Part shown: positions 22,695 to 64,000 of the stretch, in pieces
Layout: each line of letters opens with the position of its first letter
How positions within the stretch are numbered: the stretch's first letter is position 1
From: Escherichia coli
Lineage (GTDB): Bacteria > Pseudomonadota > Gammaproteobacteria > Enterobacterales > Enterobacteriaceae
NCBI RefSeq assembly: GCF_024298765.1
Contig: NZ_CP101210.1
Length of the DNA: 64,000 bases
Reading direction: 5' to 3' (one strand)
The notes under the pieces: model-generated
Database searches by the model: none
Told to the model about the DNA's origin: nothing
What the model saw: only the letters and a program-made list of their open reading frames with translations
Position numbers and translations under genes: made by a program

Positions 22695-22725
22695 TCACCA
22701 AAATGGATAGGGGATGATTTAACGA

Positions 22726-23484
22726 ATGGACGCACTACAAACACAAACTGTTAATAGTACAACCGCGCCGCAGCCCAACTACATTCCGGGGCTGATTGCG
22801 GTGGTCGGGTGTGATGGCACCGGTAAATCCACACTGACCACCGACCTGGTGAAATCGCTGCAACAACACTGGCAAACCGAGCGGCGCTATCTGGGGCTGC
22901 TCTCGGGCGAAGACGGCGACAAAATCAAACGATTGCCGTTGGTTGGCGTCTGGCTCGAACGGCGACTGGCGGCCAAATCCTCGAAAACCCAAAGCATGAA
23001 AACCAAATCTCCAGCGCTATGGGCGGCGGTGATTATGTACTGCTTCTCGCTGCGAAGAATGGCGAATCTACGCAAGGTTCAGCGACTGGCGCAAAGTGGC
23101 GTTCTGGTGGTCAGCGATCGCTTCCCGCAGGCTGAAATTTCGGGCTTTTATTATGACGGACCGGGGATCGGCGTCGAACGTGCGACCGGGAAAATCAGCA
23201 TGTTTCTGGCGCAGCGCGAACGGCGTTTATACCAACAAATGGCGCAATACCGTCCTGAATTAATCATTCGTTTGGGGATTGATATTGATACTGCCATCTC
23301 CCGCAAGCCTGACCATGACTATGCCGAGCTGCAGGACAAAATCGGCGTCATGTCGACGATTGGCTATAACGGCACAAAAATTCTTGAGATTGATTCCAGA
23401 GCGCCCTACAGCGAAGTGCTGGAACAGGCACAGAAGGCGGTTTCTCTGGTTGCCATCGTTTCTGACCGCCGAAGTTTAACTTAA
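22726..23484 (+). CDS. yghR: P-loop NTPase-like protein (paralog 3 of 3)
   Basis: 252 aa; Walker A GCDGTGKST; DRFPQ; SRKPDH. Confidence 0.8.
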   Translation: MDALQTQTVNSTTAPQPNYIPGLIAVVGCDGTGKSTLTTDLVKSLQQHWQTERRYLGLLSGEDGDKIKRLPLVGVWLERRLAAKSSKTQSMKTKSPALWAAVIMYCFSLRRMANLRKVQRLAQSGVLVVSDRFPQAEISGFYYDGPGIGVERATGKISMFLAQRERRLYQQMAQYRPELIIRLGIDIDTAISRKPDHDYAELQDKIGVMSTIGYNGTKILEIDSRAPYSEVLEQAQKAVSLVAIVSDRRSLT

Positions 23485-23529
23485 GGCTGGCGGGATACTT
23501 TTTACTATCAACGATAAGGTCAGGCTGAA

Positions 23530-24879
23530 TTGGCGGGTTTTAACATCAAACATTGGTTTGCAGATGGCGCGTTTCGCACCATTATTCGCAATAGCGCCTG
23601 GTTAGGCTCCAGTAATGTCGTGAGCGCTTTGCTGGGTCTGTTGGCGCTCTCGTGTGCCGGTAAAGGGATGACGCCCGCCATGTTTGGCGTACTGGTGATT
23701 GTACAATCGTACGCCAAGTCGATCAGCGATTTTATTAAGTTTCAGACATGGCAGCTGGTGGTTCAGTACGGAACACCAGCATTAACCAACAATAATCCGC
23801 AGCAATTCCGCAATGTCGTCTCATTTTCCTTCTCGCTGGATATCGTCAGCGGCGCGGTGGCGATTGTCGGCGGCATTGCCTTACTCCCTTTTCTTTCCCA
23901 TTCATTAGGTCTGGATGACCAAAGCTTTTGGCTGGCAGCGCTGTATTGCACGCTCATTCCTTCAATGGCTTCCTCCACGCCGACCGGCATTCTGCGTGCG
24001 GTAGATCGCTTCGATCTAATTGCTGTACAGCAAGCGACGAAACCTTTTCTGCGCGCAGCGGGGAGCGTCGTTGCCTGGTATTTTGACTTTGGTTTTGCGG
24101 GTTTTGTTATTGCCTGGTACGCCTCGAATCTTGTTGGCGGCACCATGTACTGGTGGTTTGCCGCACGTGAATTACGCCGCAGAAATATCCATAACGCGTT
24201 CAAATTGAATCTGTTTGAGTCTGCCCGACACATCAAAGGCGCGTGGAGTTTTGTCTGGTCAACCAACATTGCCCATTCCATCTGGTCGGCGCGTAATTCG
24301 TGCAGCACAGTGTTGGTGGGGATCGTGTTAGGACCCGCTGCCGCCGGGTTATTTAAAATCGCCATGACATTCTTCGACGCCGCCGGAACGCCAGCGGGTT
24401 TACTGGGCAAAAGTTTTTACCCAGAGGTGATGCGTTTAGATCCGCGTACCACCAGACCGTGGTTGTTAGGCGTGAAGTCAGGTTTACTGGCGGGCGGAAT
24501 CGGTATTCTGGTGGCGCTCGCGGTGTTGATTGTCGGCAAGCCGCTCATTTCGCTGGTGTTTGGCGTTAAGTATCTCGAAGCGTATGACCTGATTCAGGTG
24601 ATGCTGGGCGCAATTGTGATCTCGATGCTGGGCTTCCCTCAGGAGTCATTGCTATTGATGGCGGGAAAACAGCGCGCTTTTCTCGTGGCGCAAACCATCG
24701 CCTCAATCGGCTACATCGTATTGCTGTTCATGTTCTGTCATCTGTTTGGCGTGCTGGGAGCAGCGTTTGCTTATTTCGGTGGTCAATGTCTGGATGTGGT
24801 GCTTTCGCTAATTCCGACCTTAAAGGCATTTTTTCAGCGCCATTCCTTGCTTTATAACGCAGCCGGAGAGAAATCCTGA
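23530..24879 (+). CDS. yghQ: MOP/Wzx-like multi-pass membrane flippase-family protein (start uncertain)
   Basis: Long hydrophobic ORF; first in-frame ATG at 23668; frame open upstream to TTG at 23530. Confidence 0.65.
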   Translation: MAGFNIKHWFADGAFRTIIRNSAWLGSSNVVSALLGLLALSCAGKGMTPAMFGVLVIVQSYAKSISDFIKFQTWQLVVQYGTPALTNNNPQQFRNVVSFSFSLDIVSGAVAIVGGIALLPFLSHSLGLDDQSFWLAALYCTLIPSMASSTPTGILRAVDRFDLIAVQQATKPFLRAAGSVVAWYFDFGFAGFVIAWYASNLVGGTMYWWFAARELRRRNIHNAFKLNLFESARHIKGAWSFVWSTNIAHSIWSARNSCSTVLVGIVLGPAAAGLFKIAMTFFDAAGTPAGLLGKSFYPEVMRLDPRTTRPWLLGVKSGLLAGGIGILVALAVLIVGKPLISLVFGVKYLEAYDLIQVMLGAIVISMLGFPQESLLLMAGKQRAFLVAQTIASIGYIVLLFMFCHLFGVLGAAFAYFGGQCLDVVLSLIPTLKAFFQRHSLLYNAAGEKS

Positions 24880-25703
24880 TGATGAGAAAATATTTCCCGC
24901 TAGAGGCGAGCGAGCGTCTATTTGTTGCGATTGAAGAAGATGATGTCGTTGATGCACAGGTCAGTTTGCCGCCGACTATCGCACTAAGTTGTACCACCGA
25001 AATCATCCATGATAATTACGCGTTATGCCTGCAATTCTGGCTCAATGGCGTCAATCGCCAGGAGTTACTGCGTTTAATATGCAAACAGGCCAAAGGCGAT
25101 GAGCTGACTGCTGATGAGCGCAAACAATTTAAATACATGCGAGCGCGCTACAAGCACCTGCGTTTTGCGCAACGGCTGTATTTAAAGAAGCATCAGGCCG
25201 GATTTTTATTCGGCAAAACGACCGTTTTTTTGGGGCGTTTTCAGGACGGCTTTCGTAACGGTAAGAAAAATATTGTGTCGTATTACGGCAACCTGTTACG
25301 GGTTTATTTAAGCTCTCCGGTCTGGTCGTTGGTGAACTATTCATTACGCCATAGCCAGTTAGAAAGCGTAAGCGGTTTTATTGCCTATCGGCAAAAGCAA
25401 ATGCATACCCTGAAAGAGATAATTGCCAAACCGCGACTAACCGGCAGGGAATTTCATGATGTGCGAAAAATCATCAGCCAGCAGGTTTCTTATTACGACA
25501 CCCTAAGATCGCTTGATCCTGAAAATAAAGAAGCGTTACAGATTTCCCGCTTCCTCGCCGCCATTAATGGCCTGATGGGGGATAAACACGACGACATGGT
25601 GGCGGATGATATGGAAAACCGCCAGTCGTATGATGCACCGATGGCGCTGGATAGCGATATTCGCCAGCGCTTAGAACTGCTGATTTCGCGTTTTCCGCTA
25701 TAA
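24879..25703 (+). CDS. hypothetical cytoplasmic protein, 274 aa (island gene)
   Basis: ATG overlaps yghQ stop (TGATG); GGAGAG RBS at 24865-24870; no domain recognised. Confidence 0.6.
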   Translation: MMRKYFPLEASERLFVAIEEDDVVDAQVSLPPTIALSCTTEIIHDNYALCLQFWLNGVNRQELLRLICKQAKGDELTADERKQFKYMRARYKHLRFAQRLYLKKHQAGFLFGKTTVFLGRFQDGFRNGKKNIVSYYGNLLRVYLSSPVWSLVNYSLRHSQLESVSGFIAYRQKQMHTLKEIIAKPRLTGREFHDVRKIISQQVSYYDTLRSLDPENKEALQISRFLAAINGLMGDKHDDMVADDMENRQSYDAPMALDSDIRQRLELLISRFPL

Positions 25704-25711
25704 CCGGAGCA

Positions 25712-26275
25712 ATGATGTCATCTCGTTTGATTATTGCGCTGATTATCATGCTCTTAGCCCCGGGTGTGCAGGCACACAATTTCGTCACTGGCAAAACGGT
25801 TACCCCCGTTTATATCCAGGAAGGCGGCGAGCTGCTTCGGAATAGCGACGACGAAATTCACTACCAAAAGTGGAACAGCACCCAATTGGCGGGAAAAGTT
25901 CGCATTATTCAGTATATCGCCGGGCGTAAGTCGGCGAAGAAAAAGAACTCACTGTTAATTAAAGCAGTTGAAGCGGCAAACTTTCCGCAGGATCGTTTTC
26001 AGCCCACCACCATTGTGAACACTGATGATGCCATCTTTGGTACCGGCTATTTTGTCGTTGGCAAAATCGAAAAAAATAAACGCCGCTATCCATGGGCGCA
26101 ATTCGTTATTGACGGCAATGGACAGGGACGCGTTGCCTGGCACTTGCAGGAGCAGAGTTCAACCATTCTGGTGCTGAATAAAACCGGGCAAATTCAGTGG
26201 GCAAAGGACGGCAGCCTGACGCCGGAAGAGGTAGATCATGTCATTGCGCTGGCGCAGAAGCTGATCAATGAATAA
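25712..26275 (+). CDS. YtfJ-family secreted/periplasmic protein paralog
   Basis: 187 aa; signal peptide MMSSRLIIALIIMLLAPGVQA; strong resemblance to E. coli YtfJ as recalled (KVRxxQHIAGR, TTIVNTDDAI, VQWAKDGxLTPEEV). Confidence 0.65.
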   Translation: MMSSRLIIALIIMLLAPGVQAHNFVTGKTVTPVYIQEGGELLRNSDDEIHYQKWNSTQLAGKVRIIQYIAGRKSAKKKNSLLIKAVEAANFPQDRFQPTTIVNTDDAIFGTGYFVVGKIEKNKRRYPWAQFVIDGNGQGRVAWHLQEQSSTILVLNKTGQIQWAKDGSLTPEEVDHVIALAQKLINE

Positions 26276-26304
26276 AAATTCAAAGGATTGAGGGCGTTAG
26301 TGAG

Positions 26305-27375
26305 ATGAAGCTGGTTGAACACTACATCATGCGTGGTACGCGCCGTCTGGTGCTGATTATCGTCGGTTTTCTGATCTTTATTTTCGCCAGCTACTCCGCA
26401 CAGCGTTATCTGACCGAAGCGGCAAATGGGACATTAGCTCTTGATGTTGTGCTGGATATCGTTTTCTACAAAGTGCTGATTGCACTGGAGATGTTGTTAC
26501 CTGTTGGACTGTATGTGTCAGTTGGCGTGACGCTAGGGCAGATGTATACCGACTCGGAAATTACCGCTATCTCTGCGGCGGGGGGCAGTCCGGGACGCTT
26601 GTACAAAGCCGTTCTTTATCTGGCGATACCGCTAAGTATTTTTGTCACCCTTCTGTCGATGTATGGTCGTCCGTGGGCTTATGCGCAGATTTATCAACTG
26701 GAGCAACAGTCACAGTCGGAGCTGGATGTTCGCCAGTTGCGGGCAAAGAAATTTAACACTAACGATAACGGACGAATGATCCTTTCGCAGACGGTTGATC
26801 AGGATAATAATCGCCTGACTGATGCGCTGATTTATACTTCTACTGCTAATCGAACCCGCATTTTCCGCGCCCGTTCGGTTGATGTGGTTGACCCATCACC
26901 TGAGAAACCGACCGTTATGTTGCATAACGGGACCGCCTATCTTCTCGATCATCAGGGGCGTGACGACAACGAACAGATCTACCGTAATCTGCAATTACAT
27001 CTGAATCCGCTGGATCAAAGCCCTAACGTCAAACGCAAAGCAAAATCGGTCACGGAGCTGGCGCGCTCCGCCTTTCCTGCCGATCATGCCGAACTGCAAT
27101 GGCGACAAAGCCGTGGCCTGACAGCATTGTTGATGGCGCTGCTGGCCATTTCATTAAGTCGGGTAAAACCGCGGCAAGGGCGATTTTCAACGTTATTGCC
27201 ACTGACGTTGCTGTTTGTTGCCATTTTTTATGGCGGCGACGTCTGCCGTACGCTGGTGGCTAACGGCGCGATTCCCCTCATTCCTGGTTTGTGGTTAGTA
27301 CCCGGACTCATGCTAATGGGCCTGCTGATGTTGGTCGCACGCGACTTCTCTTTGCTGCAGAAATTTTCCCGATGA
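26305..27375 (+). CDS. LptF-like permease (YjgP/YjgQ family) paralog
   Basis: 356 aa; 6-TM pattern with large periplasmic loop; YTDSEIT and KPRQGRF motifs resembling LptF. Confidence 0.7.
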   Translation: MKLVEHYIMRGTRRLVLIIVGFLIFIFASYSAQRYLTEAANGTLALDVVLDIVFYKVLIALEMLLPVGLYVSVGVTLGQMYTDSEITAISAAGGSPGRLYKAVLYLAIPLSIFVTLLSMYGRPWAYAQIYQLEQQSQSELDVRQLRAKKFNTNDNGRMILSQTVDQDNNRLTDALIYTSTANRTRIFRARSVDVVDPSPEKPTVMLHNGTAYLLDHQGRDDNEQIYRNLQLHLNPLDQSPNVKRKAKSVTELARSAFPADHAELQWRQSRGLTALLMALLAISLSRVKPRQGRFSTLLPLTLLFVAIFYGGDVCRTLVANGAIPLIPGLWLVPGLMLMGLLMLVARDFSLLQKFSR

Positions 27376-28451
27376 ATGTTTTCAGTCGCTATTTAATCCG
27401 TCATCTCTTTCTCGGTTTTGCCGCCGCCGCAGGGCTATTGCTGCCGCTTTTTACCACCTTCAACCTGATTAACGAACTGGATGATGTCAGCCCGGGTGGT
27501 TATCGCTGGACTCAGGCGGTGCTGGTGGTGCTGATGACCTTACCGCGCACACTGGTCGAACTTTCGCCGTTTATCGCCTTATTGGGAGGGATTGTCGGCC
27601 TGGGGCAGTTATCGAAAAACAGTGAGCTTACCGCCATTCGCAGCACGGGGTTTTCTATCTTCCGTATTGCACTGGTGGCGCTGGTTGCCGGGATATTGTG
27701 GACTGTTTCATTAGGCGCGATAGATGAGTGGGTGGCGTCGCCATTGCAGCAACAGGCGCTGCAAATCAAATCGACTGCCACTGCGTTGGGGGAGGACGAT
27801 GACATTACCGGCAATATGCTGTGGGCCAGGCGTGGTAATGAATTTGTGACGGTGAAATCGCTGAACGAGCAGGGCCAGCCGGTGGACGTGGAGATATTTC
27901 ATTACCGCGATGATCTCTCGCTCGAATCCTACATTTATGCGCGCAGTGCTACCATTGAAGACGACAAAACGTGGATCCTGCATGGTGTGAATCATAAAAA
28001 ATGGCTGAATGGCAAAGAAACGCAGGAAACATCTGATAATCTTCCCTGGCAATCGGCCTTCACCAGTATGAATCTTGAAGAGTTATCGATGCCGGGAAAT
28101 ACTTTTTCTGTCCGTCAACTTAATCATTACATCCATTATTTGCAGGAAACCGGGCAACCCAGCAGCGAATACCGCCTTGCACTGTGGGAAAAACTGGGAC
28201 AACCCATCTTGACCCTGGCGATGATTTTGCTGGCTGTGCCGTTTACCTTTAGCGCCCCGCGTTCGCCTGGGATGGGTAGCCGTCTCGCTGTAGGCGTCAT
28301 CGTTGGCTTACTCACCTGGATCAGCTATCAAATCATGGTCAATCTGGGATTGTTATTTGCGTTGAGCGCACCTGTTACCGCGCTCGGTTTACCGGTAGCG
28401 TTTGTGCTGGTGGCGTTGAGCCTGGTGTATTGGTATGACAGACAACATTAA
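27372..28451 (+). CDS. LptG-like permease (YjgP/YjgQ family) paralog
   Basis: ATG at 27372 overlaps upstream stop (ATGA); MNVFSRYLIRHLF N-terminus typical of LptF/G family; 359 aa. Confidence 0.7.
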   Translation: MNVFSRYLIRHLFLGFAAAAGLLLPLFTTFNLINELDDVSPGGYRWTQAVLVVLMTLPRTLVELSPFIALLGGIVGLGQLSKNSELTAIRSTGFSIFRIALVALVAGILWTVSLGAIDEWVASPLQQQALQIKSTATALGEDDDITGNMLWARRGNEFVTVKSLNEQGQPVDVEIFHYRDDLSLESYIYARSATIEDDKTWILHGVNHKKWLNGKETQETSDNLPWQSAFTSMNLEELSMPGNTFSVRQLNHYIHYLQETGQPSSEYRLALWEKLGQPILTLAMILLAVPFTFSAPRSPGMGSRLAVGVIVGLLTWISYQIMVNLGLLFALSAPVTALGLPVAFVLVALSLVYWYDRQH

Positions 28452-28485
28452 ACCCGCCGTGGCGCAACACCACAGCGGGCTCACA

Positions 28486-29658
28486 TTACTGCTTCAGAGT
28501 AGCAAATGCCTGAATGATGGCATCGATTTGCTCACGACTGTGGGCAGCGTTTACGCTACAGCGCAGCAGCGTGATGCCTGCAGGCGCGGCAGGTGGCAGG
28601 ATAAGATTCACATAAACGCCCAGCGAAATAAGCTCGCGCCAGATGCGTAAACCTTCCTCTTTCGAACCGATTATTACTGGCACTACCGGGCTAATATGTG
28701 AACTTAACTCATAACCCAGTTTTTGCAGACCGTCATACAGATGGTTGGCGTTATCCATCAGTTTTTGCCGCAGCTCTGGTTGTGTGGAAATGGTTCTTAA
28801 CGACGAGCGCACGGTCGCAATGCAGGACGGAGAAGGAGAGGCGGTAAAAATATACGGGCGGCTGCCGTAGCGCAGCACTTCCATCGCTTCTGAACCCACG
28901 GCAAAACCACCAATGGAAGCCAAACTTTTACTGAAGGTGCCGACGATAATATCCACGTCGTCTTCAACGCCAACGGCTTCAACCAGTCCGCGGCCTGTTG
29001 CGCCTAACACGCCAAACGAATGTGCTTCATCGACAATCAAATAACCACCGAGACGACGTTTGATATCAACAATTTCTGCCAGCGGCGCAACGTCACCGAG
29101 CATACTGTAGATGCCTTCAACGATAATAATCGCCTCTTTCGCCCGTTCACCGAGGCGGACCATGCGCCGTTCCAGATCGTTGACGTCATTATGGCGGAAA
29201 CGAATAATCTCTGCGCCGCCGAGAGAACAGGCGTCATAAATACTGGCGTGGCTGTCGGCATCCAGTAACACCACGGCGTTATGGTCGGCAAGTGCGCTGA
29301 TGACACCTAAATTAGCGGTATAACCGGTTGAAAAAACGATAGCGGTAGGGCGATTGAAAAACTCGGCAATCTCTTTCTCTAACGCCAGATGCGGCGCATA
29401 ACTGCCGTTTGCCATACGAGAACCGGTGGTGCCAGTGCCTTGGGCCGCTAACGCTGCCTGACCTTCGCGGATAGCATCATGATTAAAGGTTAAACCGAGA
29501 TAATTATTGGTCCCGGCCAGAATCACTTTTTTATTGCCGATCCGGCCTTCGGTGGCGGAATACACTTCATCAATACAGGTGCCAAATGGTGTTAACCCGT
29601 TGTCACTAAATTGCAGGCGCTCGCCAGCAAGGCGCGCATATTTATCGTATAGCCCCAT
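28486..29658 (-). CDS. alpha-oxoamine synthase, serine palmitoyltransferase-like (PLP-dependent)
   Basis: 390 aa; DEAHSFG and GTFSKSLAS motifs (Lys244 codon at 28927-28929) typical of SPT/KBL/AONS family. Confidence 0.75.
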   Translation of the reverse strand: MGLYDKYARLAGERLQFSDNGLTPFGTCIDEVYSATEGRIGNKKVILAGTNNYLGLTFNHDAIREGQAALAAQGTGTTGSRMANGSYAPHLALEKEIAEFFNRPTAIVFSTGYTANLGVISALADHNAVVLLDADSHASIYDACSLGGAEIIRFRHNDVNDLERRMVRLGERAKEAIIIVEGIYSMLGDVAPLAEIVDIKRRLGGYLIVDEAHSFGVLGATGRGLVEAVGVEDDVDIIVGTFSKSLASIGGFAVGSEAMEVLRYGSRPYIFTASPSPSCIATVRSSLRTISTQPELRQKLMDNANHLYDGLQKLGYELSSHISPVVPVIIGSKEEGLRIWRELISLGVYVNLILPPAAPAGITLLRCSVNAAHSREQIDAIIQAFATLKQ

Positions 29659-29906
29659 TATTTATTCTCCAGCCATGGAAGTAGAGTTTCCATTAATTGC
29701 GCAGGGGTTTTGACATCCAGCAGAATATTAATAGGAATGGAAATATCGAATCTGTCTTCCAGCATCATTAAGAGATCCATCACTTTGATCGACTCCAGGC
29801 CAAGATCGTTGACGAGATCGCTGTCGGGCTTAATTTCCACACCGTTTTCGACCAAATCCTGTAAACAGGAAAGGATGTAATCCATTACTATTTCACGATT
29901 TACCAT
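29658..29906 (-). CDS. dedicated acyl carrier protein
   Basis: 82 aa; DLGLESIKVMDLLMMLEDRF helix-2 region with candidate phosphopantetheine Ser; stop overlaps AOS start (TAATG). Confidence 0.65.
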   Translation of the reverse strand: MVNREIVMDYILSCLQDLVENGVEIKPDSDLVNDLGLESIKVMDLLMMLEDRFDISIPINILLDVKTPAQLMETLLPWLENK

Positions 29907-29937
29907 AGAAACGTTAACACACCTTTAAACAAGACAA

Positions 29938-30852
29938 TCAAAATAGCCCGTTGCGTAATGCGTGTTCCAGGCTAATCCCGGGAAACCAATTAATATCTTC
30001 AGAAATACGGTTATTATTTGCCGACCAGTCGGCGTGGGTTAATTCACGAATTTTCGAGCGGGTCAGCATAGGTTCTTTACCTGCCAGGCGACTCAACGCA
30101 GTACTGATATCCGCAAGGCAGGTGAGTAGCGGCAGAGGAATGCCAACCATCCGCACAGAACCACAACGGGCTTCGGCGGCAAGCTGTCGTACGCGTTGCC
30201 AGTCATAGCCGCCAGCGACGCCATCGCATAATTCATAGGTTTGCGTCTGTACAGTTTCGGCGTTTAACCACTGACCCACTGCTTGCGCAAAATCGGTGAC
30301 GTGCAGGAAAGAGAGTTGTGTATCTGGCGCACCAAGTCGTGGCAGCAGGCCGCGCAGCATCCAGTCAAACAGCGGTTTTAACTCTTTATCGCCGGGACCA
30401 TACACGGCTGTCGGGCGAAAAATGCCCAGCGTAATTTCGTCAGCCATTGCGATCAGTCGTTGTTCGGCGACGTGTTTGGAATTTGCGTACCAGGAGAGTT
30501 CGGGATGGCGCGCCGCCAGCGAAGAGATAAACAGAAAACGTTGGCAAAAGCCGCTCTCTTTTGCCGCTTGCATCAGGCGCAGGCTGCCGTCAACGTTACA
30601 GCGGGTAAAAATCTCTTCTTTGTGTCCGCGCACTTGTCCGGCGCAATGGACCACCGCGCTGGCTCCGGCAACCAGTTCGCTAAGCGAATGTGTATCTTCC
30701 AGCGAACCGCGCACCCAGATGAGATTATCATTGACGTGAGCGCGGGCAGTACGCGTCAATGTGCGAACGTGAAAGCCGCGGGCGAGCAGGTTATCGATAA
30801 TATATTTACCGATAAACCCGGTAGCGCCCGTCACCGCGACAGTTTGATTCAT
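29938..30852 (-). CDS. NAD(P)-dependent epimerase/dehydratase-fold reductase
   Basis: ATG at 30852 (MNQTVAVTGATGFIGKYI), 304 aa; YANSK catalytic dyad; track ORF has an N-terminal extension overlapping the upstream gene. Confidence 0.7.
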   Translation of the reverse strand: MNQTVAVTGATGFIGKYIIDNLLARGFHVRTLTRTARAHVNDNLIWVRGSLEDTHSLSELVAGASAVVHCAGQVRGHKEEIFTRCNVDGSLRLMQAAKESGFCQRFLFISSLAARHPELSWYANSKHVAEQRLIAMADEITLGIFRPTAVYGPGDKELKPLFDWMLRGLLPRLGAPDTQLSFLHVTDFAQAVGQWLNAETVQTQTYELCDGVAGGYDWQRVRQLAAEARCGSVRMVGIPLPLLTCLADISTALSRLAGKEPMLTRSKIRELTHADWSANNNRISEDINWFPGISLEHALRNGLF

Positions 30853-32573
30853 GCCAGGGATTCCTGCACATGAAGGCTTGCAGCATAAGCCTTCTGATAA
30901 CGTTTTTTCGCTTCCGCACGGGCAGGCTTGCCGGAGGACGTTCGGGGAATACTGTGGGGCGGCAACAGATCGATAGCCGCGGTCACGCCAAATTCGCTTT
31001 GGATCCGTGCTACCAGTGCGTGGATAAGCTGCCCACGACGTTCTTCGTCGCTGATCCGACACTGGATCTGCAAAATGATTTTTTCCTGGGCGGTAACAAA
31101 AGCAATCGCATCGCCAGAATGAATTTCCGGTTCCTGTTCCGCAATGTATTCAATATCCTGCGGCCAGATATTACGGCCACGAATAATAATCAGATCTTTA
31201 ATGCGTCCGGTGACATACAGATAACCGTCCAGCAGATAACCGAGGTCGCCGGTGTCTAACCAGCCCGTCGCGGCAATCTCGTCTTGCGAAACCTGGTCGC
31301 CAAAGTACCCGCTCATCAGGCTGGGGCCGGAGATGCAAATATGGCCTACCACACGTTCCGCGACAGGTATATCTGCTTCATTGCGGATTTCAATGCCATG
31401 TTCCGGCAACGCTTTACCGCAGTTGACGAAAGTCGATACGGCGCGTGTTTCAGCACCCGGCGCGACGGCTTTACCCTGGTATTCGAGGATGTCGCGATCC
31501 ACTTCGTTAACCACAACCCCGCAGGCTTCATCAGAGAAGCTGACAGCCAGCGCATTTTCTGCCAGTCCGTAGCACGGCATGAAAGTTTTATCGTCAAAGT
31601 TAACCTGACGAAAACATTCAGCGAATTGATGGAGTTGTTCTGCGGAGATCGGTTCTGCTCCAATACCAGCGACGCGCCAGCAGGAAAGATCCAGTTCAGC
31701 GAGATCTTTTTCATTCACGCGGCGCTGGCACAATTCATAGCCAAACGGCGGTGCAACGGAAACGGTGCCGCGATTTTTACTGATCAATTTAAGCCATTGC
31801 AGAGGACGCATGGCAAAATCCTGAGTGCGCAAATAATCTACTGAAAGCTGCGTGGCGACGGGGGTCAGGAGAAAGCCGACCAGTCCCATATCATGGTAGA
31901 AAGGCAGCCAGGAGACGCAGCGGTCGCCAGGGCGTAATTTAATGCCATCGTGGCTTATAGCACGTAGATTAGCCATCACTTCGTGATGGGTGATAATGAC
32001 GCCACGGGGAAAACGGGTGCTGCCGGAGGTGTACTGGAGGTAGGCGATATCGTTCGGAACTGGACGCTGGAGCGCAACATCGGCTTCCGGTAATGCCTTA
32101 AACCAGGCGTGGCTTAAAACATGTAATTCGGGGTTGTTGTTATGCGTCGCGGCATTGACCAGCGGTAACCACTCATCACCAGTGATAATGGCTGCGGGCT
32201 GGCAACTTGCCAGTAAACCCTGCAGTTTGGCGCTCCAGGAATCCCGCTGACCGACGCCCATTGGAATCGCCAACGGGACGGCGACTAAGCCGGCACACTG
32301 GCAGGAAAAAAAAGCCTCTACAAACCCGCTACTCGTTTCGGCAATCAGCGCCACGCGATCGCCTTTTTTCAGGTTCAGCGATAACAACCGCTTCGCACCA
32401 GCTTCGGCACGCGCTTTTAACGTCTGATATTCCAGTTGATCTTCAAGTTGGCAACGTCTGTCATAAAAATTCATTCCGGCGCTACTCAGAGCGGCGTAGT
32501 CCAAAGCATCAACCAGCGTTGGAAAATCGGCATAGCGCATAGGTAGGGAATGCGTAAAGATTTTATTAGACAT
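30849..32573 (-). CDS. fatty acyl-AMP ligase / acyl-ACP synthetase-like adenylating enzyme
   Basis: About 574 aa from ATG at 32573; YTSGSTRFPRG core motif; GRIKDLIIIRGRNIWPQDIE; stop overlaps next start. Confidence 0.7.
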   Translation of the reverse strand: MSNKIFTHSLPMRYADFPTLVDALDYAALSSAGMNFYDRRCQLEDQLEYQTLKARAEAGAKRLLSLNLKKGDRVALIAETSSGFVEAFFSCQCAGLVAVPLAIPMGVGQRDSWSAKLQGLLASCQPAAIITGDEWLPLVNAATHNNNPELHVLSHAWFKALPEADVALQRPVPNDIAYLQYTSGSTRFPRGVIITHHEVMANLRAISHDGIKLRPGDRCVSWLPFYHDMGLVGFLLTPVATQLSVDYLRTQDFAMRPLQWLKLISKNRGTVSVAPPFGYELCQRRVNEKDLAELDLSCWRVAGIGAEPISAEQLHQFAECFRQVNFDDKTFMPCYGLAENALAVSFSDEACGVVVNEVDRDILEYQGKAVAPGAETRAVSTFVNCGKALPEHGIEIRNEADIPVAERVVGHICISGPSLMSGYFGDQVSQDEIAATGWLDTGDLGYLLDGYLYVTGRIKDLIIIRGRNIWPQDIEYIAEQEPEIHSGDAIAFVTAQEKIILQIQCRISDEERRGQLIHALVARIQSEFGVTAAIDLLPPHSIPRTSSGKPARAEAKKRYQKAYAASLHVQESLA

Positions 32574-32600
32574 ATACACCACGAAAAAATTGGATATCAA

Positions 32601-35107: not shown

Positions 35108-36607
35108 ATGAGCATCTTGTACGAAGAGCGTCTTGATGGCGCTTTACCCGATGTCGACCGCACATCGGTACTGATGGCACTGCGTGAGCATGTCCCTGGA
35201 CTTGAGATCCTGCATACCGATGAGGAGATCATTCCTTACGAGTGTGACGGGTTGAGCGCGTATCGCACGCGTCCATTACTGGTTGTTTTGCCAAAGCAGA
35301 TGGAACAGGTGACGGCGATTCTGGCTGTCTGCCACCGCCTGCGTGTACCGGTCGTGACCCGTGGTGCAGGCACCGGGCTTTCTGGTGGCGCGCTGCCTCT
35401 GGAAAAAGGTGTGTTGTTGGTGATGGCGCGCTTTAAAGAGATCCTCGACATTAACCCCGTTGGTCGCCGCGCGCGCGTGCAGCCGGGCGTGCGTAACCTG
35501 GCGATCTCCCAGGCCGTTGCGCCGCATAATCTCTATTACGCGCCGGATCCTTCCTCACAAATCGCCTGTTCAATTGGCGGCAATGTGGCGGAAAATGCCG
35601 GTGGCGTTCACTGCCTGAAATATGGTCTGACCGTACAGAACCTGCTGAAAATTGAAGTGCAAACGCTGGACGGCGAGGCGCTGACGCTGGGATCGGATGC
35701 GCTGGATTCGCCTGGTTTTGACCTGCTGGCGCTGTTCACCGGATCGGAAGGTATGCTCGGCGTGACCACCGAAGTGACGGTAAAACTGCTGCCGAAGCCG
35801 CCCGTGGCGCGGGTTCTGTTAGCCAGCTTTGACTCGGTAGAAAAAGCCGGACTTGCGGTTGGTGACATCATCGCCAATGGCATTATCCCCGGCGGGCTGG
35901 AGATGATGGATAACCTGTCGATTCGCGCGGCGGAAGATTTTATTCATGCCGGTTATCCCGTCGATGCCGAAGCGATTTTGTTATGCGAACTGGACGGCGT
36001 GGAGTCTGACGTACAGGAAGACTGCGAGCGAGTTAACGACATCTTGTTGAACGCGGGTGCGACTGACGTCCGTCTGGCACAGGACGAAGCAGAGCGAGTA
36101 CGTTTCTGGGCCGGTCGCAAAAATGCGTTCCCGGCGGTAGGACGTATCTCCCCGGATTACTACTGCATGGATGGCACCATCCCGCGCCGCGCCCTGCCTG
36201 GCGTACTGGAAGGCATTGCCCGTTTATCGCAGCAATATGATTTACGCGTTGCCAACGTCTTTCATGCCGGAGACGGCAACATGCACCCGTTAATCCTTTT
36301 CGATGCCAACGAACCCGGTGAATTTGCCCGCGCGGAAGAACTGGGCGGGAAGATCCTCGAACTCTGCGTTGAAGTTGGCGGCAGCATCAGTGGGGAACAT
36401 GGCATCGGGCGCGAAAAAATCAATCAAATGTGCGCCCAGTTCAACAGCGATGAAATCACGACCTTCCATGCGGTCAAGGCGGCGTTTGACCCCGATGGTT
36501 TGCTGAACCCAGGAAAAAACATTCCCACGCTACACCGCTGTGCTGAATTTGGTGCCATGCATGTGCATCACGGTCATTTACCTTTTCCTGAACTGGAGCG
36601 TTTCTGA
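35108..36607 (+). CDS. glcD: glycolate oxidase FAD-binding subunit
   Basis: 499 aa; FAD-binding PCMH-type sequence. Confidence 0.9.
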   Translation: MSILYEERLDGALPDVDRTSVLMALREHVPGLEILHTDEEIIPYECDGLSAYRTRPLLVVLPKQMEQVTAILAVCHRLRVPVVTRGAGTGLSGGALPLEKGVLLVMARFKEILDINPVGRRARVQPGVRNLAISQAVAPHNLYYAPDPSSQIACSIGGNVAENAGGVHCLKYGLTVQNLLKIEVQTLDGEALTLGSDALDSPGFDLLALFTGSEGMLGVTTEVTVKLLPKPPVARVLLASFDSVEKAGLAVGDIIANGIIPGGLEMMDNLSIRAAEDFIHAGYPVDAEAILLCELDGVESDVQEDCERVNDILLNAGATDVRLAQDEAERVRFWAGRKNAFPAVGRISPDYYCMDGTIPRRALPGVLEGIARLSQQYDLRVANVFHAGDGNMHPLILFDANEPGEFARAEELGGKILELCVEVGGSISGEHGIGREKINQMCAQFNSDEITTFHAVKAAFDPDGLLNPGKNIPTLHRCAEFGAMHVHHGHLPFPELERF

Positions 36608-37659
36608 TGCTACGCGAGTGTGATTACAGCCAGGCGCTGCTGGAGCAGGTGAATCAGGCGATTAGCGATAAAACGCCGCTGGTGATTCAGGGCAGCAATA
36701 GCAAAGCCTTTTTAGGTCGCCCTGTCACCGGGCAAACGCTGGATGTGCGTTGTCATCGCGGCATTGTTAATTACGACCCGACCGAGCTGGTGATAACCGC
36801 GCGTGCCGGAACGCCGCTGGTGGCGATTGAAGCAGCGCTGGAGAGCGCCGGGCAAATGCTCCCCTGCGAGCCGCCGCATTATGGTGAAGAAGCCACCTGG
36901 GGCGGGATGGTCGCTTGCGGGCTGGCGGGGCCGCGTCGCCCGTGGAGTGGTTCGGTCCGCGATTTTGTCCTCGGCACGCGCATCATTACCGGCACTGGAA
37001 AACATCTGCGTTTTGGTGGCGAAGTGATGAAAAACGTTGCCGGATACGATCTCTCACGGTTAATGGCCGGAAGCTACGGTTGTCTTGGCGTGCTCACTGA
37101 AATCTCGATGAAAGTGTTACCGCGACCACGCGCCACCCTGAGTCTGCGTCGGGAAATCAGCCTGCAAGAAGCCATGAATGAAATCGCCCAGTGGCAACTC
37201 CAGCCATTACCCATTAGTGGCTTATGTTACTTCGACAATGCGTTGTGGATCCTCCTTGAGGGCGGCGGTGGATCGGTAAAAGCAGCGCGTGAACTGCTGG
37301 GGGGCGAAGAGGTTGCGGGTCAGTTCTGGCAGCAATTGCGTGAACAACAACTGCCGTTCTTCTCGTTACCAGGTACCTTATGGCGCATTTCCTTACCCAG
37401 CGATGCGCCGATGATAGATTTACCCGGCGAGCAACTGATCGACTGGGGCGGGGCGCTACGCTGGCTGAAATCGACAGCCGATGACAATCAAATCCATCGC
37501 ATCGCCCGCAACGCTGGCGGTCATGCGACCCGCTTTAGTGCCGGAGATGGTGGTTTTGCCCCGCTACCGGCTCCTTTATTCCGCTATCACCAGCAGCTTA
37601 AACAGCAGCTCGACCCTTGCGGCGTGTTTAACCCCGGTCGCATGTACGCGGAACTTTGA
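36607..37659 (+). CDS. glcE: glycolate oxidase subunit GlcE
   Basis: 350 aa; ATG overlaps glcD stop. Confidence 0.88.
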   Translation: MLRECDYSQALLEQVNQAISDKTPLVIQGSNSKAFLGRPVTGQTLDVRCHRGIVNYDPTELVITARAGTPLVAIEAALESAGQMLPCEPPHYGEEATWGGMVACGLAGPRRPWSGSVRDFVLGTRIITGTGKHLRFGGEVMKNVAGYDLSRLMAGSYGCLGVLTEISMKVLPRPRATLSLRREISLQEAMNEIAQWQLQPLPISGLCYFDNALWILLEGGGGSVKAARELLGGEEVAGQFWQQLREQQLPFFSLPGTLWRISLPSDAPMIDLPGEQLIDWGGALRWLKSTADDNQIHRIARNAGGHATRFSAGDGGFAPLPAPLFRYHQQLKQQLDPCGVFNPGRMYAEL

Positions 37660-58789: not shown

Positions 58790-59964
58790 GTTCCATGCTT
58801 GAGATTTTTTTCCCGCTTTGCGCCGCTGATCCCATCCGTTGGCAGCGCCATACACCCGACGTGGAGCACGGTATCTGGCCTGACGTTGCTGACGAACGTC
58901 TCCAGCAATGGCTGCAAACTGATGCGATTCGACTCTACATTCCCGGCGAATGGATCAGCGTCTGGCAGGTTGAACTGCCTGATGTGCCCCGCAAGCAGAT
59001 ACCGACGATTCTGCCCGCCTTGCTGGAAGAAGAGCTGAACCAGGATATCGATGAACTGCATTTCGCCCCGTTGAAAATCGACCAGCAACTGGCAACCGTA
59101 GCTGTGATTCACCAGCAGCATATGCGCAACATTGCGCAGTGGTTGCAGGCAAACGGCATCGCCCGCGCTACCGTCGCGCCGGACTGGATGTCCATTCCTT
59201 GTGGGTTTATGGCTGGCGATGCGCAACGGGTTATCTGCCGTATCGATGAATGCCGGGGATGGAGCGCCGGGCGGGCGCTGGCTCCGGTCATGTTCCGCGC
59301 ACAGCTCAATGAGCAGAATTTACCGATTTCACTAACTGTGGTCGGCATTGCACCGGAAGAACTGTCTGCATGGGCTGGTGCGGACGCCGAACGCCTGACC
59401 GTTACGGCTCTGCCCGCCATTACCACTTATGGCGAACCGGAAGGGAACCTGCTAACAGGGCCGTGGCAGCCTCGTGTTAGCTACCGAAAACAGTGGGCGC
59501 GCTGGCGGGTGATGATTCTGCCGATATTGCTGATTCTGGTTGCGCTGGTAGTGGAACGGGGCGTGACGTTATGGAGCGTCAGCGAACAGGTGGCGCAAAG
59601 CCGCACCCAGGCGGAGAAACAGTTCTTAACGCTATTCCCGGAGCAGAAGCGGATTGTGAATTTACGCTCGCAGGTGACGATGGCGCTGAAAAAATATCGC
59701 CCACAGGCTGATGATACCGATCTGCTTGCCGAGTTGTCTGCGATCGCCAGTACCCTGAAATCCGCATCACTTTCCGACATTGAGATGCGTGGTTTCACCT
59801 TTGATCAAAAACGCCAGACGCTTCACCTCCAGCTACGGGCTGCGAACTTTGCCAGCTTCGACAAACTGCGTAGCGCACTGGCGGTAGATTATGTTGTGCA
59901 ACAGGACGCGTTACAGAAAGAGGGTGATGCGGTTTCCGGCGGCGTAACGTTGCGGAGGAAATAA
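58786..59964 (+). CDS. gspL: type II secretion system protein L
   Basis: 392 aa (GTG 58786 or ATG 58795); single TM near residue 250. Confidence 0.8.
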   Translation: MSSMLEIFFPLCAADPIRWQRHTPDVEHGIWPDVADERLQQWLQTDAIRLYIPGEWISVWQVELPDVPRKQIPTILPALLEEELNQDIDELHFAPLKIDQQLATVAVIHQQHMRNIAQWLQANGIARATVAPDWMSIPCGFMAGDAQRVICRIDECRGWSAGRALAPVMFRAQLNEQNLPISLTVVGIAPEELSAWAGADAERLTVTALPAITTYGEPEGNLLTGPWQPRVSYRKQWARWRVMILPILLILVALVVERGVTLWSVSEQVAQSRTQAEKQFLTLFPEQKRIVNLRSQVTMALKKYRPQADDTDLLAELSAIASTLKSASLSDIEMRGFTFDQKRQTLHLQLRAANFASFDKLRSALAVDYVVQQDALQKEGDAVSGGVTLRRK

Positions 59965-59965
59965 C

Positions 59966-60502
59966 ATGTTACGCGATAAATTTATTCACTATTTTCAGCA
60001 ATGGCGTGAACGCCAGTTAAGCCGTGGCGAACACTGGCTGACACAACACCTGGCGGGGCGTTCGCCGCGTGAAAAGGGCATGTTACTGGCAGCGGCGGTG
60101 TTTCTGTTTAGCGCCGGATATTACGTCCTCATCTGGCAGCCTTTGAGCGAACGGATTGAGCAACAGGAGACGATGTTGCAACAGATGGTGGCGATGAACG
60201 CGCGACTGAAGAGCGCCGCGCCGGATATTATTGCGGCGCGAAAATCCGCCACAACAACGCCTGCACAGGTATCGCGGGTCATCAGCGATAGTGCTTCTGC
60301 GCACTCAGTGGTTATCAAGCGGATAGCCGAGCGCGGGGAGAATATTCAGGTCTGGATAGATCCGGTGGTGTTTAATGACCTGCTGAACTGGTTAAAAGCA
60401 CTGGATGAAAAGTATGCGCTGCGGGTGACACAAATTGATGTCAGCGCAGGTGAGAAGCCTGGAATGGTGAATGTGCAGCGGCTGGAATTTGGACGGGGAT
60501 AA
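59966..60502 (+). CDS. gspM: type II secretion system protein M
   Basis: 178 aa; N-terminal TM; last gene of operon. Confidence 0.8.
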   Translation: MLRDKFIHYFQQWRERQLSRGEHWLTQHLAGRSPREKGMLLAAAVFLFSAGYYVLIWQPLSERIEQQETMLQQMVAMNARLKSAAPDIIAARKSATTTPAQVSRVISDSASAHSVVIKRIAERGENIQVWIDPVVFNDLLNWLKALDEKYALRVTQIDVSAGEKPGMVNVQRLEFGRG

Positions 60503-60615
60503 AGTATCAGGAGATTAATATCAATAAAATTACTCTCGTTAACGTGGCGAGAGTAATTCCCCCAGACTTTATAAGCTAATTTTTTTCGTGAAGGTTATTG
60601 TCAGAGCCAAAAGCA

Positions 60616-60645
60616 AAAACCCGCCTTGTGGCGGGTTCTTAAGAA
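60616..60645 (-). terminator. rho-independent terminator (minus strand)
   Basis: cccgcc-ttgt-ggcggg stem-loop; on the minus strand it is followed by tttttgctttt. Confidence 0.6.
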
Positions 60646-60649
60646 TTAG

Positions 60650-60668
60650 TGGTGCCCGGACTCGGAAT
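60650..60668 (-). other. 19-nt tRNA-Phe 3'-end fragment (att-site direct-repeat remnant; island boundary)
   Basis: tggtgcccggactcggaat equals reverse complement of tRNA-Phe 3' end (...ATTCCGAGTCCGGGCACCA); no full tRNA present. Confidence 0.7.
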
Positions 60669-60915
60669 GAAACTGGTTATATAACCAATTGTTTTGTATC
60701 GACTGTTTTATCCTTGTTCTTTTTGAGGCCACCAATGAGGCCCCCATGTGCAATTCGAATTCTTTTGACGCTATAATCCCTCTTTCTTGTGGTTTGTTGT
60801 AATCATTTTGTCTGGTTCGATATGCTGAATCGCGGAATCGAAGTGACAACAAAATACAGAGATTTATAAAATACCTGGCTACCTGTGTTAGGGAGCGTTA
60901 ACGCACAGATTTTGT

Positions 60916-61242
60916 TTATGGCTGCCAGAAATGATCTGATGGTTTGTCGTCTGGCTCTGCAAGTACCCTGTTGATATCCCGGGAACCATGAACGATACGT
61001 TCGATACGAACTTCAGTATCCAGTACCCTGAACAGCAGAAGGTAACGACCATACGAACAACCTCTGATCCCAGCCCCTAACTCGGGTCTTTCTCTGTAGA
61101 GTACTGGCGATTCGGCTATCAACAGACATTGTTGGTAAAGCTCTTCGGTAAAACTGATTGCACGGACAGGATTATCCTGAGCGATCCAGTCACCTATAGC
61201 TTCAAGATCGTGTTCTGCTAATGGTGAAACAGTCAGTTTCAT
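60916..61242 (-). CDS. ParE/RelE-family type II toxin
   Basis: 108 aa; 4-nt overlap with upstream antitoxin gene; ParE-like sequence. Confidence 0.7.
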   Translation of the reverse strand: MKLTVSPLAEHDLEAIGDWIAQDNPVRAISFTEELYQQCLLIAESPVLYRERPELGAGIRGCSYGRYLLLFRVLDTEVRIERIVHGSRDINRVLAEPDDKPSDHFWQP

Positions 61243-61502
61243 ATTGGCTGTTCACCTTCTGCCATCTTTTTGTATTTGTGCGTCAGTCGCCCGAATACCT
61301 CTTCAGCACTTTTACTTTCACCGCTGTTGATGCCTGCGGCCACGGCGCTCTGGAGTGATTCAAGCTTTATCTGCTGTTCCCGTTCTTCCAGAGCACGAAG
61401 TCCGGCACGAATGACTTCACTTGTATTGTTGTACCGACCACTTTCTATTTGTTCGCGGATAAACGTTTCAAAGTAAGGACTGAGGGATACACTGGTAGGC
61501 AT
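61239..61502 (-). CDS. ParD-like type II antitoxin
   Basis: 87 aa; ribbon-helix-helix-like N-terminus; immediately upstream of the toxin. Confidence 0.7.
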   Translation of the reverse strand: MPTSVSLSPYFETFIREQIESGRYNNTSEVIRAGLRALEEREQQIKLESLQSAVAAGINSGESKSAEEVFGRLTHKYKKMAEGEQPI

Positions 61503-61573
61503 GGTTATTTTCTCGCCGATTGATTACTATCAATTAATAATAGTTAATATTCGCGAATTGTAAAATACCTCTT

Positions 61574-62440
61574 TTATGCCTTGCGGCTTTTGTTCACTGT
61601 GCTTGCCAGGGCTTCCGGGTAGTGTCTGGCAATAATATCATTAAGCCTGTCAACCAGCTCTGGTTTCCTGAACGTGATGTGCGCGGAGCCCTTCTTAAAG
61701 TATCTGATGCTGAACATCTCATCTTCATAGTCCTCTTTACCCTGAACAGACTGGATGTGATCATCCAGATGAATGGTGATGTTTTCCCGGTTGTCGGGGA
61801 TCGGTTTGCCGCTGAACAGGTGCAGCATTCTTTCCAGATCGGCAAGTCGATCGGCCTGTTGTCCGGTGATAAGATGAAACCCCCACCGGTCCCACCTCAC
61901 CAGATTGTTGACGATAATTTTACTGCCAAATTTGCAGGGTGAATTGGTTTTGTAATTCCAGCTCAGTCCTCTGAAAACGTTGAGCACCCCTCGCTCAAAC
62001 ACTTCATCTTTGTTCTGGTGCAGTTGTTCAAACGTGCTCAGGATATTTGCTTCGCTGATTTCCGGAAAATTATCGTACTCCAGTGACCGGTACCATGTAT
62101 CACGGGCTTGTGCATCCATTAATGACAGCATCCCTGAACGTTGCATCAGATCACGCCAGATTTCGCGGTCAAGGTTGCGGGTGATGGCTTTCATTGCGGT
62201 TTCCGGTTTTTCCATCAGCCAGCAACCGCAGCGAAAATCCTGTTTCATGGCCCAGTCCAGTGCAGTTTTACCTCCGATGCTTTCCGTCAGCACCGAGATT
62301 TCTGCCAGTTGCCGGATAAGTGTGTCGATTTGCAGCAGCGCACTCTTTCGTACAGCCAGAATGTGGCGGATGCTGGTTGAGCCGATAACGTCCGTATGCC
62401 CGTTGACCACTTCCGGACGGGGGGCTGTGATTTCAGACAT
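61574..62440 (-). CDS. hypothetical protein, 288 aa (island cargo)
   Basis: Long ORF with no conflicting frame; function not recognisable. Confidence 0.55.
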   Translation of the reverse strand: MSEITAPRPEVVNGHTDVIGSTSIRHILAVRKSALLQIDTLIRQLAEISVLTESIGGKTALDWAMKQDFRCGCWLMEKPETAMKAITRNLDREIWRDLMQRSGMLSLMDAQARDTWYRSLEYDNFPEISEANILSTFEQLHQNKDEVFERGVLNVFRGLSWNYKTNSPCKFGSKIIVNNLVRWDRWGFHLITGQQADRLADLERMLHLFSGKPIPDNRENITIHLDDHIQSVQGKEDYEDEMFSIRYFKKGSAHITFRKPELVDRLNDIIARHYPEALASTVNKSRKA

Positions 62441-62524
62441 AATCGATATTCCTTTTTGCAGATAAATGAAAACGCCAGCCCTGTTCAGGCTGGCGTCAGT
62501 GGAATGAAGTCTGGTGAGTAAGAC

Positions 62525-62767
62525 TCACCGGTTCTGTTGCAGAAGCTGCAACTGGCGCAGGATACGGATATCCTCCCTGGCCTGTTCGATACAGGGCAAC
62601 AGTGCTGCCGAATCCGTTCTATCCTCATCGTTGTCAAAGATAATTCCCGATTCGCAGTCGATATTGTCCTGTAGCCACGCAATCAGAATATCCAGTGCGG
62701 TTTCCGTGGTTAATGATTTCATGTTGTTCCTGGTTACCAGTCGAAAGTGGGCAGGTCCGGCAGACAT
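62525..62767 (-). CDS. hypothetical small protein, 80 aa
   Basis: ORF only; partially overlaps the next ORF. Confidence 0.35.
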   Translation of the reverse strand: MSAGPAHFRLVTRNNMKSLTTETALDILIAWLQDNIDCESGIIFDNDEDRTDSAALLPCIEQAREDIRILRQLQLLQQNR

Positions 62768-63225
62768 TCAGCGCTGGCATCCAGATGAATGAGACTGACG
62801 CCATAACGTCGGGTAAGTGTGACAACCAGACGACGGAACGTTTTTGACAGGCCCAGGCGCTTAAGCCGCAGAACCGGGTATGACCACGCATCGGTACGTA
62901 ACAGATATCCGCTACCTGTGAAATGAATCCATTCTGATTCGCCGGTGCCATTCGTCTGATGTGACAGCGAGTACAGCCAGGCGTTGTCCTTTGCCGTGAT
63001 ATGCGCGGTACTGCAGCGTATGCCGGTAAGGGCCGCCGCAGATGATGGCGTGCGCTCTGCTGATGTCCGGTCAGATTCATCAACAACACGAAGGGAGTAA
63101 CCGTTATCGCAGACCACGTTAATCAGTTCAGCGAGAGTAACACCATCGACGTCAACGACAATGCGCCCCATGTTCAGTGCCTGCACGTTAATGCTGTCGG
63201 CTTCCAGCGTCAGGGCCAGTTTCAT
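62734..63225 (-). CDS. hypothetical protein downstream of CbtA-like toxin (YeeW-position gene)
   Basis: 163-aa ORF; start overlaps toxin stop by 4 nt. Confidence 0.5.
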   Translation of the reverse strand: MKLALTLEADSINVQALNMGRIVVDVDGVTLAELINVVCDNGYSLRVVDESDRTSAERTPSSAAALTGIRCSTAHITAKDNAWLYSLSHQTNGTGESEWIHFTGSGYLLRTDAWSYPVLRLKRLGLSKTFRRLVVTLTRRYGVSLIHLDASAECLPDLPTFDW

Positions 63226-63599
63226 TGTTTCGCCCCCGGATGTTTACCCAGGGTAATGTTATTTACCGTTCTGTAATTGTCGCGGGCCATCAGGCCGGTT
63301 GCCCGGCGGGCCCGGAGGATATCAATACTGTTTATTAACTGAGAACGGGTACAGGCGCTGAATCCTGGCTGGTCGGTACGTACCAGTGCGTATTTTTCAA
63401 CGAGAAAGTTCACCGCATCGCACAGTGAAATGCCTGCCTCAATATGCTGCTCAATCACACGTTCATCAGCGAACGGTGTGTCATTCAGTGTGAGGCCGTA
63501 ATGCTGGTCCAACAGTCGGGTGAGCAGTGTCTGCCAGATGGTGACGGGAGACGGGCAGCGCGATGCCTCCCGTACGTGTGTGTCAGGTAATGTTTTCAT
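63222..63599 (-). CDS. CbtA/YeeV-family type IV toxin (cytoskeleton-binding)
   Basis: ATG at 63599 (MKTLP...), 125 aa; near-identical to the CbtA/YkfI/YpjF family as recalled. Confidence 0.8.
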   Translation of the reverse strand: MKTLPDTHVREASRCPSPVTIWQTLLTRLLDQHYGLTLNDTPFADERVIEQHIEAGISLCDAVNFLVEKYALVRTDQPGFSACTRSQLINSIDILRARRATGLMARDNYRTVNNITLGKHPGAKQ

Positions 63600-63645
63600 C
63601 TTAAGTTCTCTGTAACTGGTAGTGCTAAAGGTGAGATATTCGGGG

Positions 63646-64000
63646 TTATGAGGTGGTTGCGGGTGCCAGTGTCGGATAAACAGCCATATAAACGTAACCA
63701 CAGCTGCCGAGGGTGTCGGCTTCGCAGGTCAGCCCTCTGGCATACAGCGTGACGGTATGCTGATGGCGGGGATTCAGTTCACCGCTGGTGAGCATGAGTT
63801 CCAGTTGTTTCATCAGCAGCGGAAAGGCCTGGTCCAGATGATACGCATCCGCGTCGCTAAACTGCCCCCTGATACCGGCGCGGTCGGCAAGGTAATGCAA
63901 CCGGTTACCCTCCTGCACCAGACGTGCCCCGAAACAGGGCGTCACGGTGCAGGGGAGCCCCCACCAGGGGCGGTCGTTGTTGTTGTCGGGATGCGTTGTC
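63646..64000 (-). CDS. CbeA/YeeU-family antitoxin, 3' portion (5' end beyond window end)
   Basis: Frame stays open to the window edge (…DNNNDRPWWGLPCTVTPCFGARL…); matches CbeA/YfjZ family. Confidence 0.75.
   Translation of the reverse strand, partial: TTHPDNNNDRPWWGLPCTVTPCFGARLVQEGNRLHYLADRAGIRGQFSDADAYHLDQAFPLLMKQLELMLTSGELNPRHQHTVTLYARGLTCEADTLGSCGYVYMAVYPTLAPATTS

Follow-up and report, generated by a model that had tools for sequence, protein, structure and literature searches.

Genes and features near the right end of the window

The window analysed here is the whole 64-kb stretch of Escherichia coli DNA, near the right end of which a secretion operon, a predicted terminator, a tRNA fragment and a run of island genes lie side by side. 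The last backbone gene before the island is gspM/yghD (59966..60502, plus strand), which is preceded by gspL and closes an intact T2SS-beta (type II secretion) operon. Its 178-aa ORF carries a GspM family annotation in the closely related strain 104, and is 93% identical to K-12 YghD, which likewise has 178 aa. An earlier note on this DNA had pheV of K-12 directly neighbouring a gspM remnant; pheV does adjoin yghD there, but 'remnant' is inexact, as the truncation in K-12 affects the operon and not the yghD gene, which is full length. Beginning 28 nt past the gspM stop, at 60531-60558, is a perfect 9-bp inverted repeat (TTACTCTCG-N9-CGAGAGTAA) that is kept in K-12; it has no T-tract and was not called by our terminator scan, and may be a 3' hairpin of the gsp operon.

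A rho-independent terminator is predicted on the minus strand at 60604..60641, where the pattern scan identified a stem-loop (60641..60614; 12-pair stem including 6 G-C pairs) followed by a T-tract (tail TTTTTGCTTTT). The terminator strand folds at -26.1 kcal/mol (z = -3.9 relative to shuffles), and scan and fold together bear out the minus-strand terminator that the earlier note had placed next to the tRNA fragment. Directly 3' of pheV, K-12 has the same terminator, its loop differing by 1 nt. In the window it shares the strand of parE, 275 nt downstream of that gene, and is convergent with gspM; a terminator so placed may shield the backbone from transcripts that leave the island.

To the right of the tRNA fragment all genes are on the minus strand, as is typical of the distal end of tRNA-associated islands in E. 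coli. The fragment is followed by a non-coding right arm (60669..60915, no strand assigned), which by comparison with strains 104, HB37, HNSQ2209, SMS-3-5 and CFT073 we take as the attP-derived P' side of the island; it is identical in strain 104, HB37 and HNSQ2209, nearly so in SMS-3-5, and about 90% identical in CFT073. Within it, the block TTTTTGAGGCCACCAATGAGGCCCCCATGTGCAATTCGAATTCTTTTGACGCTATAATCCCTC (60724-60785) is the same, base for base, in the window and at the island end of CFT073, whereas the DNA between this block and the tRNA fragment has diverged by more than 10%; SMS-3-5 differs within the block at two positions. The block may be a functional site of the right arm.

The last island gene encodes a toxin of the RelE/ParE family (60916..61242, minus strand; RefSeq WP_000779483.1, with NCBIfam RelE_StbE scoring below cut-off), and is followed by the gene for a ParD-family antitoxin (61239..61502, minus strand; assigned by annotation and by NCBIfam TIGR02606, at 96.8 bits where the cut-off is 46.2). 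Next is an ORF for a DUF4942 protein of a CP4-like 'yee' module (61574..62440, minus strand; strain 104 annotation). The ORFs at 62525..64000 (minus strand) correspond, by annotation of the collinear strain 104 region, to DUF957, DUF5983, the CbtA toxin and the start of the CbeA antitoxin; together they make up the distal 'yee' module that tRNA-integrated islands of E. coli typically carry, and this module extends past the window end. Over the last 3.7 kb the window differs from strain 104 by 16 mismatches, all of them inside cbeA (yeeU-like; 63703-63984), a region with up to 18 matching places per genome, and this clustering suggests patchy gene conversion among the paralogous 'yee' modules of the genome.

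The 19-nt repeat and the breakpoint

Once reverse-complemented, the 19-mer TGGTGCCCGGACTCGGAAT at 60650-60668 is identical to the final 19 nt of annotated K-12 pheV, in keeping with the earlier note, which had read it as a tRNA-Phe 3' end; in the K-12 interval (L004) it matches 3424-3442 on the minus strand, inside the tRNA at 3367-3442. All 19 nt also match the 3' end of annotated pheV in strain 104, SMS-3-5, CFT073 and HB37. ARAGORN found no tRNA gene in the whole 64-kb window, in agreement with the note's remark that a full tRNA is missing, and an Rfam scan of 59900-64000 found no partial tRNA or small RNA.

We mapped the breakpoint by three-way alignment of the window with the pheV-yghD interval of K-12 and the stretch from integrase to pheV in the closest relative, and tabulated every copy of the 19-mer with its flanks. 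In K-12, attB consists of the backbone flank (terminator...GAATTAG), the 19-mer and then the tRNA body (CGAACCAAGGACA...). The window combines a K-12-like backbone flank with the 19-mer and island sequence (GAAACTGGTTATATAACC...), so that the region around 60616-60690 reads ...AAAAACCCGCCTTGTGGCGGGTTCTTAAGAATTAG-TGGTGCCCGGACTCGGAAT-GAAACTGGTTATATAACC...; attL of strains 104 and SMS-3-5 combines the integrase-side island flank (...GGAAGTGAAAG) with the 19-mer and the tRNA body. The K-12 order of yghD, terminator and pheV is collinear with the window through 60668, where homology ends, K-12 continuing into the tRNA body and the window into island DNA. Across the junction GC content passes from about 0.55 to 0.41-0.47. 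The comparison with the K-12 junction that the note had proposed thus places the 19-mer at the breakpoint between K-12-like backbone and island DNA, the position expected of the distal att repeat that it had described. Together, the alignment and the flank table show that the predicted terminator at 60604-60641 is pheV's own, kept beside the old 3' end of the gene.

The perfect repeat common to both island ends is slightly longer than the tRNA match. In strain 104 it measures 21 nt, since the AG at window positions 60648-60649, two bases beyond the CCA, is also shared by attL and attR. We accordingly delimit the attR core, a direct repeat of the pheV 3' end, as 60648..60668 (minus strand), of which 60650-60668 is tRNA sequence.

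Could the 19-mer be a chance match to tRNA-Phe without biological meaning? Its short length is the one point in favour of this, and a chance 19-mer lacking a matching second copy was what the earlier note had said would count against its own reading. The window contains one copy, even with three mismatches permitted, where shuffles give an expectation of 0.01; the copy sits exactly at the breakpoint defined by K-12, beside pheV's own terminator; and the same junction recurs in hundreds of genomes. With the expected count and the flank table both against it, we give chance practically no weight.

The breakpoint is nucleotide-identical in the window, strain 104, HB37 and HNSQ2209, and is the same in CFT073 and SMS-3-5 save for point substitutions, one within the CFT073 19-mer and one at the first island base of SMS-3-5. 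A 161-nt query spanning the window junction was covered over at least 80% of its length in 769 of 5426 complete E. coli genomes, and in many genomes the match is confined to the query's backbone half, with tRNA-Phe found where it stops.

We conclude that the repeat at 60650-60668 and the stranded terminator very probably represent attR of a large island in pheV, of the SMS-3-5/int394 type of GI-pheV. This reading sets the right-hand limit of the genome's pheV island precisely, with island DNA starting at 60669 and everything from there to the window end horizontally acquired, and it accounts for both an orphan terminator and an orphan tRNA fragment. The feature is already documented and common, being present in hundreds of complete genomes, and the phenomenon is a textbook one; the value of the result is mainly as annotation. 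The perfect repeat is worth recording: pheV islands carry many virulence and fitness genes of E. coli, and the integrity of the repeat is thought to affect island stability (PMC11537424).

The far end of the island in the closest relatives

Among complete genomes we found none identical to the window; the avian strains 104 and E166 come closest, both at 99.9% identity over the last 25 kb. Window positions equal positions in the strain 104 region (L001) plus 40299, and from 40300 to 63700 the two sequences differ by three mismatches only. Over the 40 kb to the left (1-40299) identity is 99.16%, with 337 mismatches and one 1-nt indel, and a recombination boundary is predicted near glcB/glcA. At about 22700-32600 of the window, by collinearity with strain 104 (L011 22726-32573), lies a cluster between yghS and yghO, annotated with a serine palmitoyltransferase (spt), an acyl carrier protein, an epimerase, a fatty acyl-AMP ligase, extra copies of lptF/lptG and an LPS-biosynthesis protein, and thus by annotation an unusual lipid-synthesis-like locus.

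In strain 104, the second copy of the 19-mer forms the 3' end of an intact annotated tRNA-Phe, 72,009 bp away and in direct orientation. At the far end of the island the order is a 394-aa tyrosine integrase, the intact tRNA-Phe (pheV), yqgA and speC. The earlier note had expected an integrase and a complete tRNA-Phe with the same repeat beyond the window end, and in the closest complete genome this is what is found. The integrase has P4-type architecture, with the domains Arm-DNA-bind_3 (1.7e-26), Phage_int_M (2.5e-30) and Phage_integrase (7.7e-26); against NCBIfam PRK09692 it scores 309 bits, below the cut-off of 434 bits. Its ORF is intact and 99-100% conserved in strains 104, SMS-3-5 and HB37, and a junction of int394-type integrase and tRNA-Phe occurs in 529 of the 5426 complete E. 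coli genomes. The genome of the window probably has the same far end, with integrase and intact pheV beyond the window.

Between its ends, the strain 104 island contains the yee module, IS elements, a type I R-M system, a phosphoethanolamine transferase and a sugar module of raffinose/sucrose type. The island is mosaic in structure and includes several IS elements as well as an integrase fragment in its interior; parts of it have therefore arrived or been rearranged after integration. No further 19-mer copies, which would be evidence of tandem accretion, were found inside it with up to three mismatches.

Two further observations concern the integrase end. In strain 104, GAGTTC(A/G)G is repeated four to five times in direct orientation between the integrase start and pheV (L003 2133-2308), and these copies are candidates for arm-type sites of the integrase; a search for arm-type motifs common to the integrase-side arm and the right arm of the window yielded nothing beyond chance 8-mers. 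In addition, a record counted as a plasmid (NZ_CP137739.1, HNSQ2209, 187,535 bp) carries an int394-type integrase and tRNA-Phe at 35955-37404 with 99.4% identity, which points either to a copy of the attL junction on a plasmid or to a fault in assembly or classification.

These far-end data bear on a second explanation, in which an event without site specificity, such as a deletion or an IS-mediated insertion, destroyed a pheV gene and left the 19-mer as its stump, with no second copy or cognate integrase to be expected. The many IS fragments in the island of the closest relative lend this some plausibility, as does the report that one third of GI-pheV islands are without attR, having lost it through deletions (PMC11537424). 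Against it, the nearest genomes have an intact pheV with the same direct 19-mer at the other end, beside an intact P4-type integrase; the breakpoint is nearly invariant across strains, as described above; and no IS end abuts the 19-mer in the window. We judge destruction of pheV by such an event to be very improbable, and retain attR as the reading of the repeat.

Tandem arrays in HB37 and HNSQ2209

Strains HB37 and HNSQ2209 have the same 19-mer and island end as the window (100% identity over 101 nt) on a different left flank: where the window has gspM, they have the flank from the integrase side of a CFT073-type island, complete with the terminator that this island brings. In HB37 (NZ_CP053080.1 1020000-1128500) the order is a UPEC-type island, the 19-mer, a window-type island, an integrase, pheV and yqgA. 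The UPEC-type island contains cdiA, pgt and pap and terminates in an intP4.1-type (CFT073-type) integrase; the window-type island is 54 kb long and also carries sul2/ISCR2, and the pheV-proximal integrase is 99% identical to that of strain 104.

With the left flank changed and the 19-mer and island end kept, these arrays show what appears to be a true site-specific boundary. By the same comparison, HB37 shows an apparent integration of the window-type island, independently, into an already occupied pheV, the predicted unit being bounded by the repeat and moving as a unit.

HB37 also bears on a separate candidate origin for the window attR, namely a CFT073-type integrase that has since been lost. 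This had been suspected since the TPR gene of strain 104, which is homologous to the integrase-adjacent gene of CFT073, ends at an IS1. It was dropped because the TPR gene of HB37 directly adjoins the int394-type integrase, so that TPR is a conserved integrase-proximal gene of both island types. In strains 104 and SMS-3-5 the sugar-utilisation module and IS1 are apparently inserted between TPR and the integrase.

A further question is whether the window retains a working attachment site or a fossil scar, that is, a true attR of a now-fixed island on which the cognate integrase no longer acts. The mosaic, IS-ridden structure of the strain 104 island is compatible with a fossil, and GI-pheV islands have been described as co-evolving stably with their lineages (PMC11537424). 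On the other side stand the perfect repeat of 19 to 21 nt, the intact and conserved integrase ORF, and the tandem array of HB37, in which the unit has integrated behind a pre-existing island. We regard a fossil scar as possible, though somewhat less likely than an attR on which the integrase may still act.

Proposed mechanism of integration

The general mechanism of tyrosine-recombinase islands has been summarised (PMC7545054). Applied to the present locus, a P4-family tyrosine integrase would recombine attP on a circular form of the island with attB, the 3' end of chromosomal pheV. An intact pheV would be rebuilt at attL, the integrase end, from island-borne sequence, and the displaced original 3' end of pheV would become attR, left with its native terminator beside gspM/yghD. 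An int394-type integrase probably made this junction, and the perfect repeat together with the intact integrase may keep the island excisable.

At attL of the int394 type, a pattern scan detected no terminator separating pheV from int. This raises the idea that transcription from the strong promoters of pheV, a gene now cut off from its native terminator, might continue into the co-oriented int and so keep islands of this family more active than usual. Such read-through would be consistent with the perfect repeat, with an integrase that is intact and conserved, and with insertion in tandem behind older islands, yet we consider it unlikely.

Comparison with known systems

The island resembles P4 and the CP4-type cryptic prophages of K-12 in several respects. 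Its integrase, as seen in strain 104, belongs to the P4 family of tyrosine integrases and has an Arm-DNA-binding domain at the N terminus, and as in those elements the 3' end of a tRNA gene is targeted, the gene is regenerated and a short direct repeat results. P4 itself targets leuX; the island differs from P4 and the CP4 elements in having pheV, rather than leuX or others, as its tRNA target. Neither the window nor its annotated relatives showed genes for phage structure or replication. The distal yee/cbtA-cbeA module is as in CP4-44 (PMC11537424).

PAI I-CFT073 and other intP4.1-type GI-pheV islands of UPEC share the pheV insertion site and the crossover region with the window island (PMC11537424). 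The CFT073 island also keeps the native pheV terminator at attR, and it has a similar right arm and the same 'yee' module. Its attR starts TTTCATTCCGA..., the CFT073-type attR being TTTCATTCCGATTCCGGGCACCA, and unlike that of the window it has one substitution in the 19-mer (G to T, in tRNA sense). The two types differ further in their integrases, the pheV integrase of CFT073 having only 43% protein identity to that of strain 104; in the terminator that the CFT073 island brings directly after pheV (L008 811-836), which the int394 type is without; and in the last genes of the island, which are DUF6088 and AbiEii in CFT073 and ParD/ParE in the window.

The closest counterpart is GI-pheV of SMS-3-5, one of the islands tabulated in 41 genomes by PMC11537424 (Table 1, PLoS Genet 2024), in which it is listed as 91,940 bp with attR TTTTATTCCGAGTCCGGGCACCA and its integrase is the most divergent. 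In the same notation, the attR of the window is TTTCATTCCGAGTCCGGGCACCA. The two differ at the base just past the 19-mer, where the window reads TTTC... and SMS-3-5 TTTT...; in the backbone beyond the terminator, which is an IS110 fragment and the kps capsule locus in SMS-3-5 and gspM in the window; and in island size, 72 kb in strain 104 compared with 92 kb in SMS-3-5. They are alike in their perfect 19-nt repeat and in the ParD/ParE-DUF4942-CbtA organisation of the right end; and strain 104 shares with SMS-3-5 the integrase-proximal sugar genes (alpha-galactosidase, MFS transporter, GH32 and porin) and the integrase itself, which is the same protein (WP_001218742.1) in both strains.
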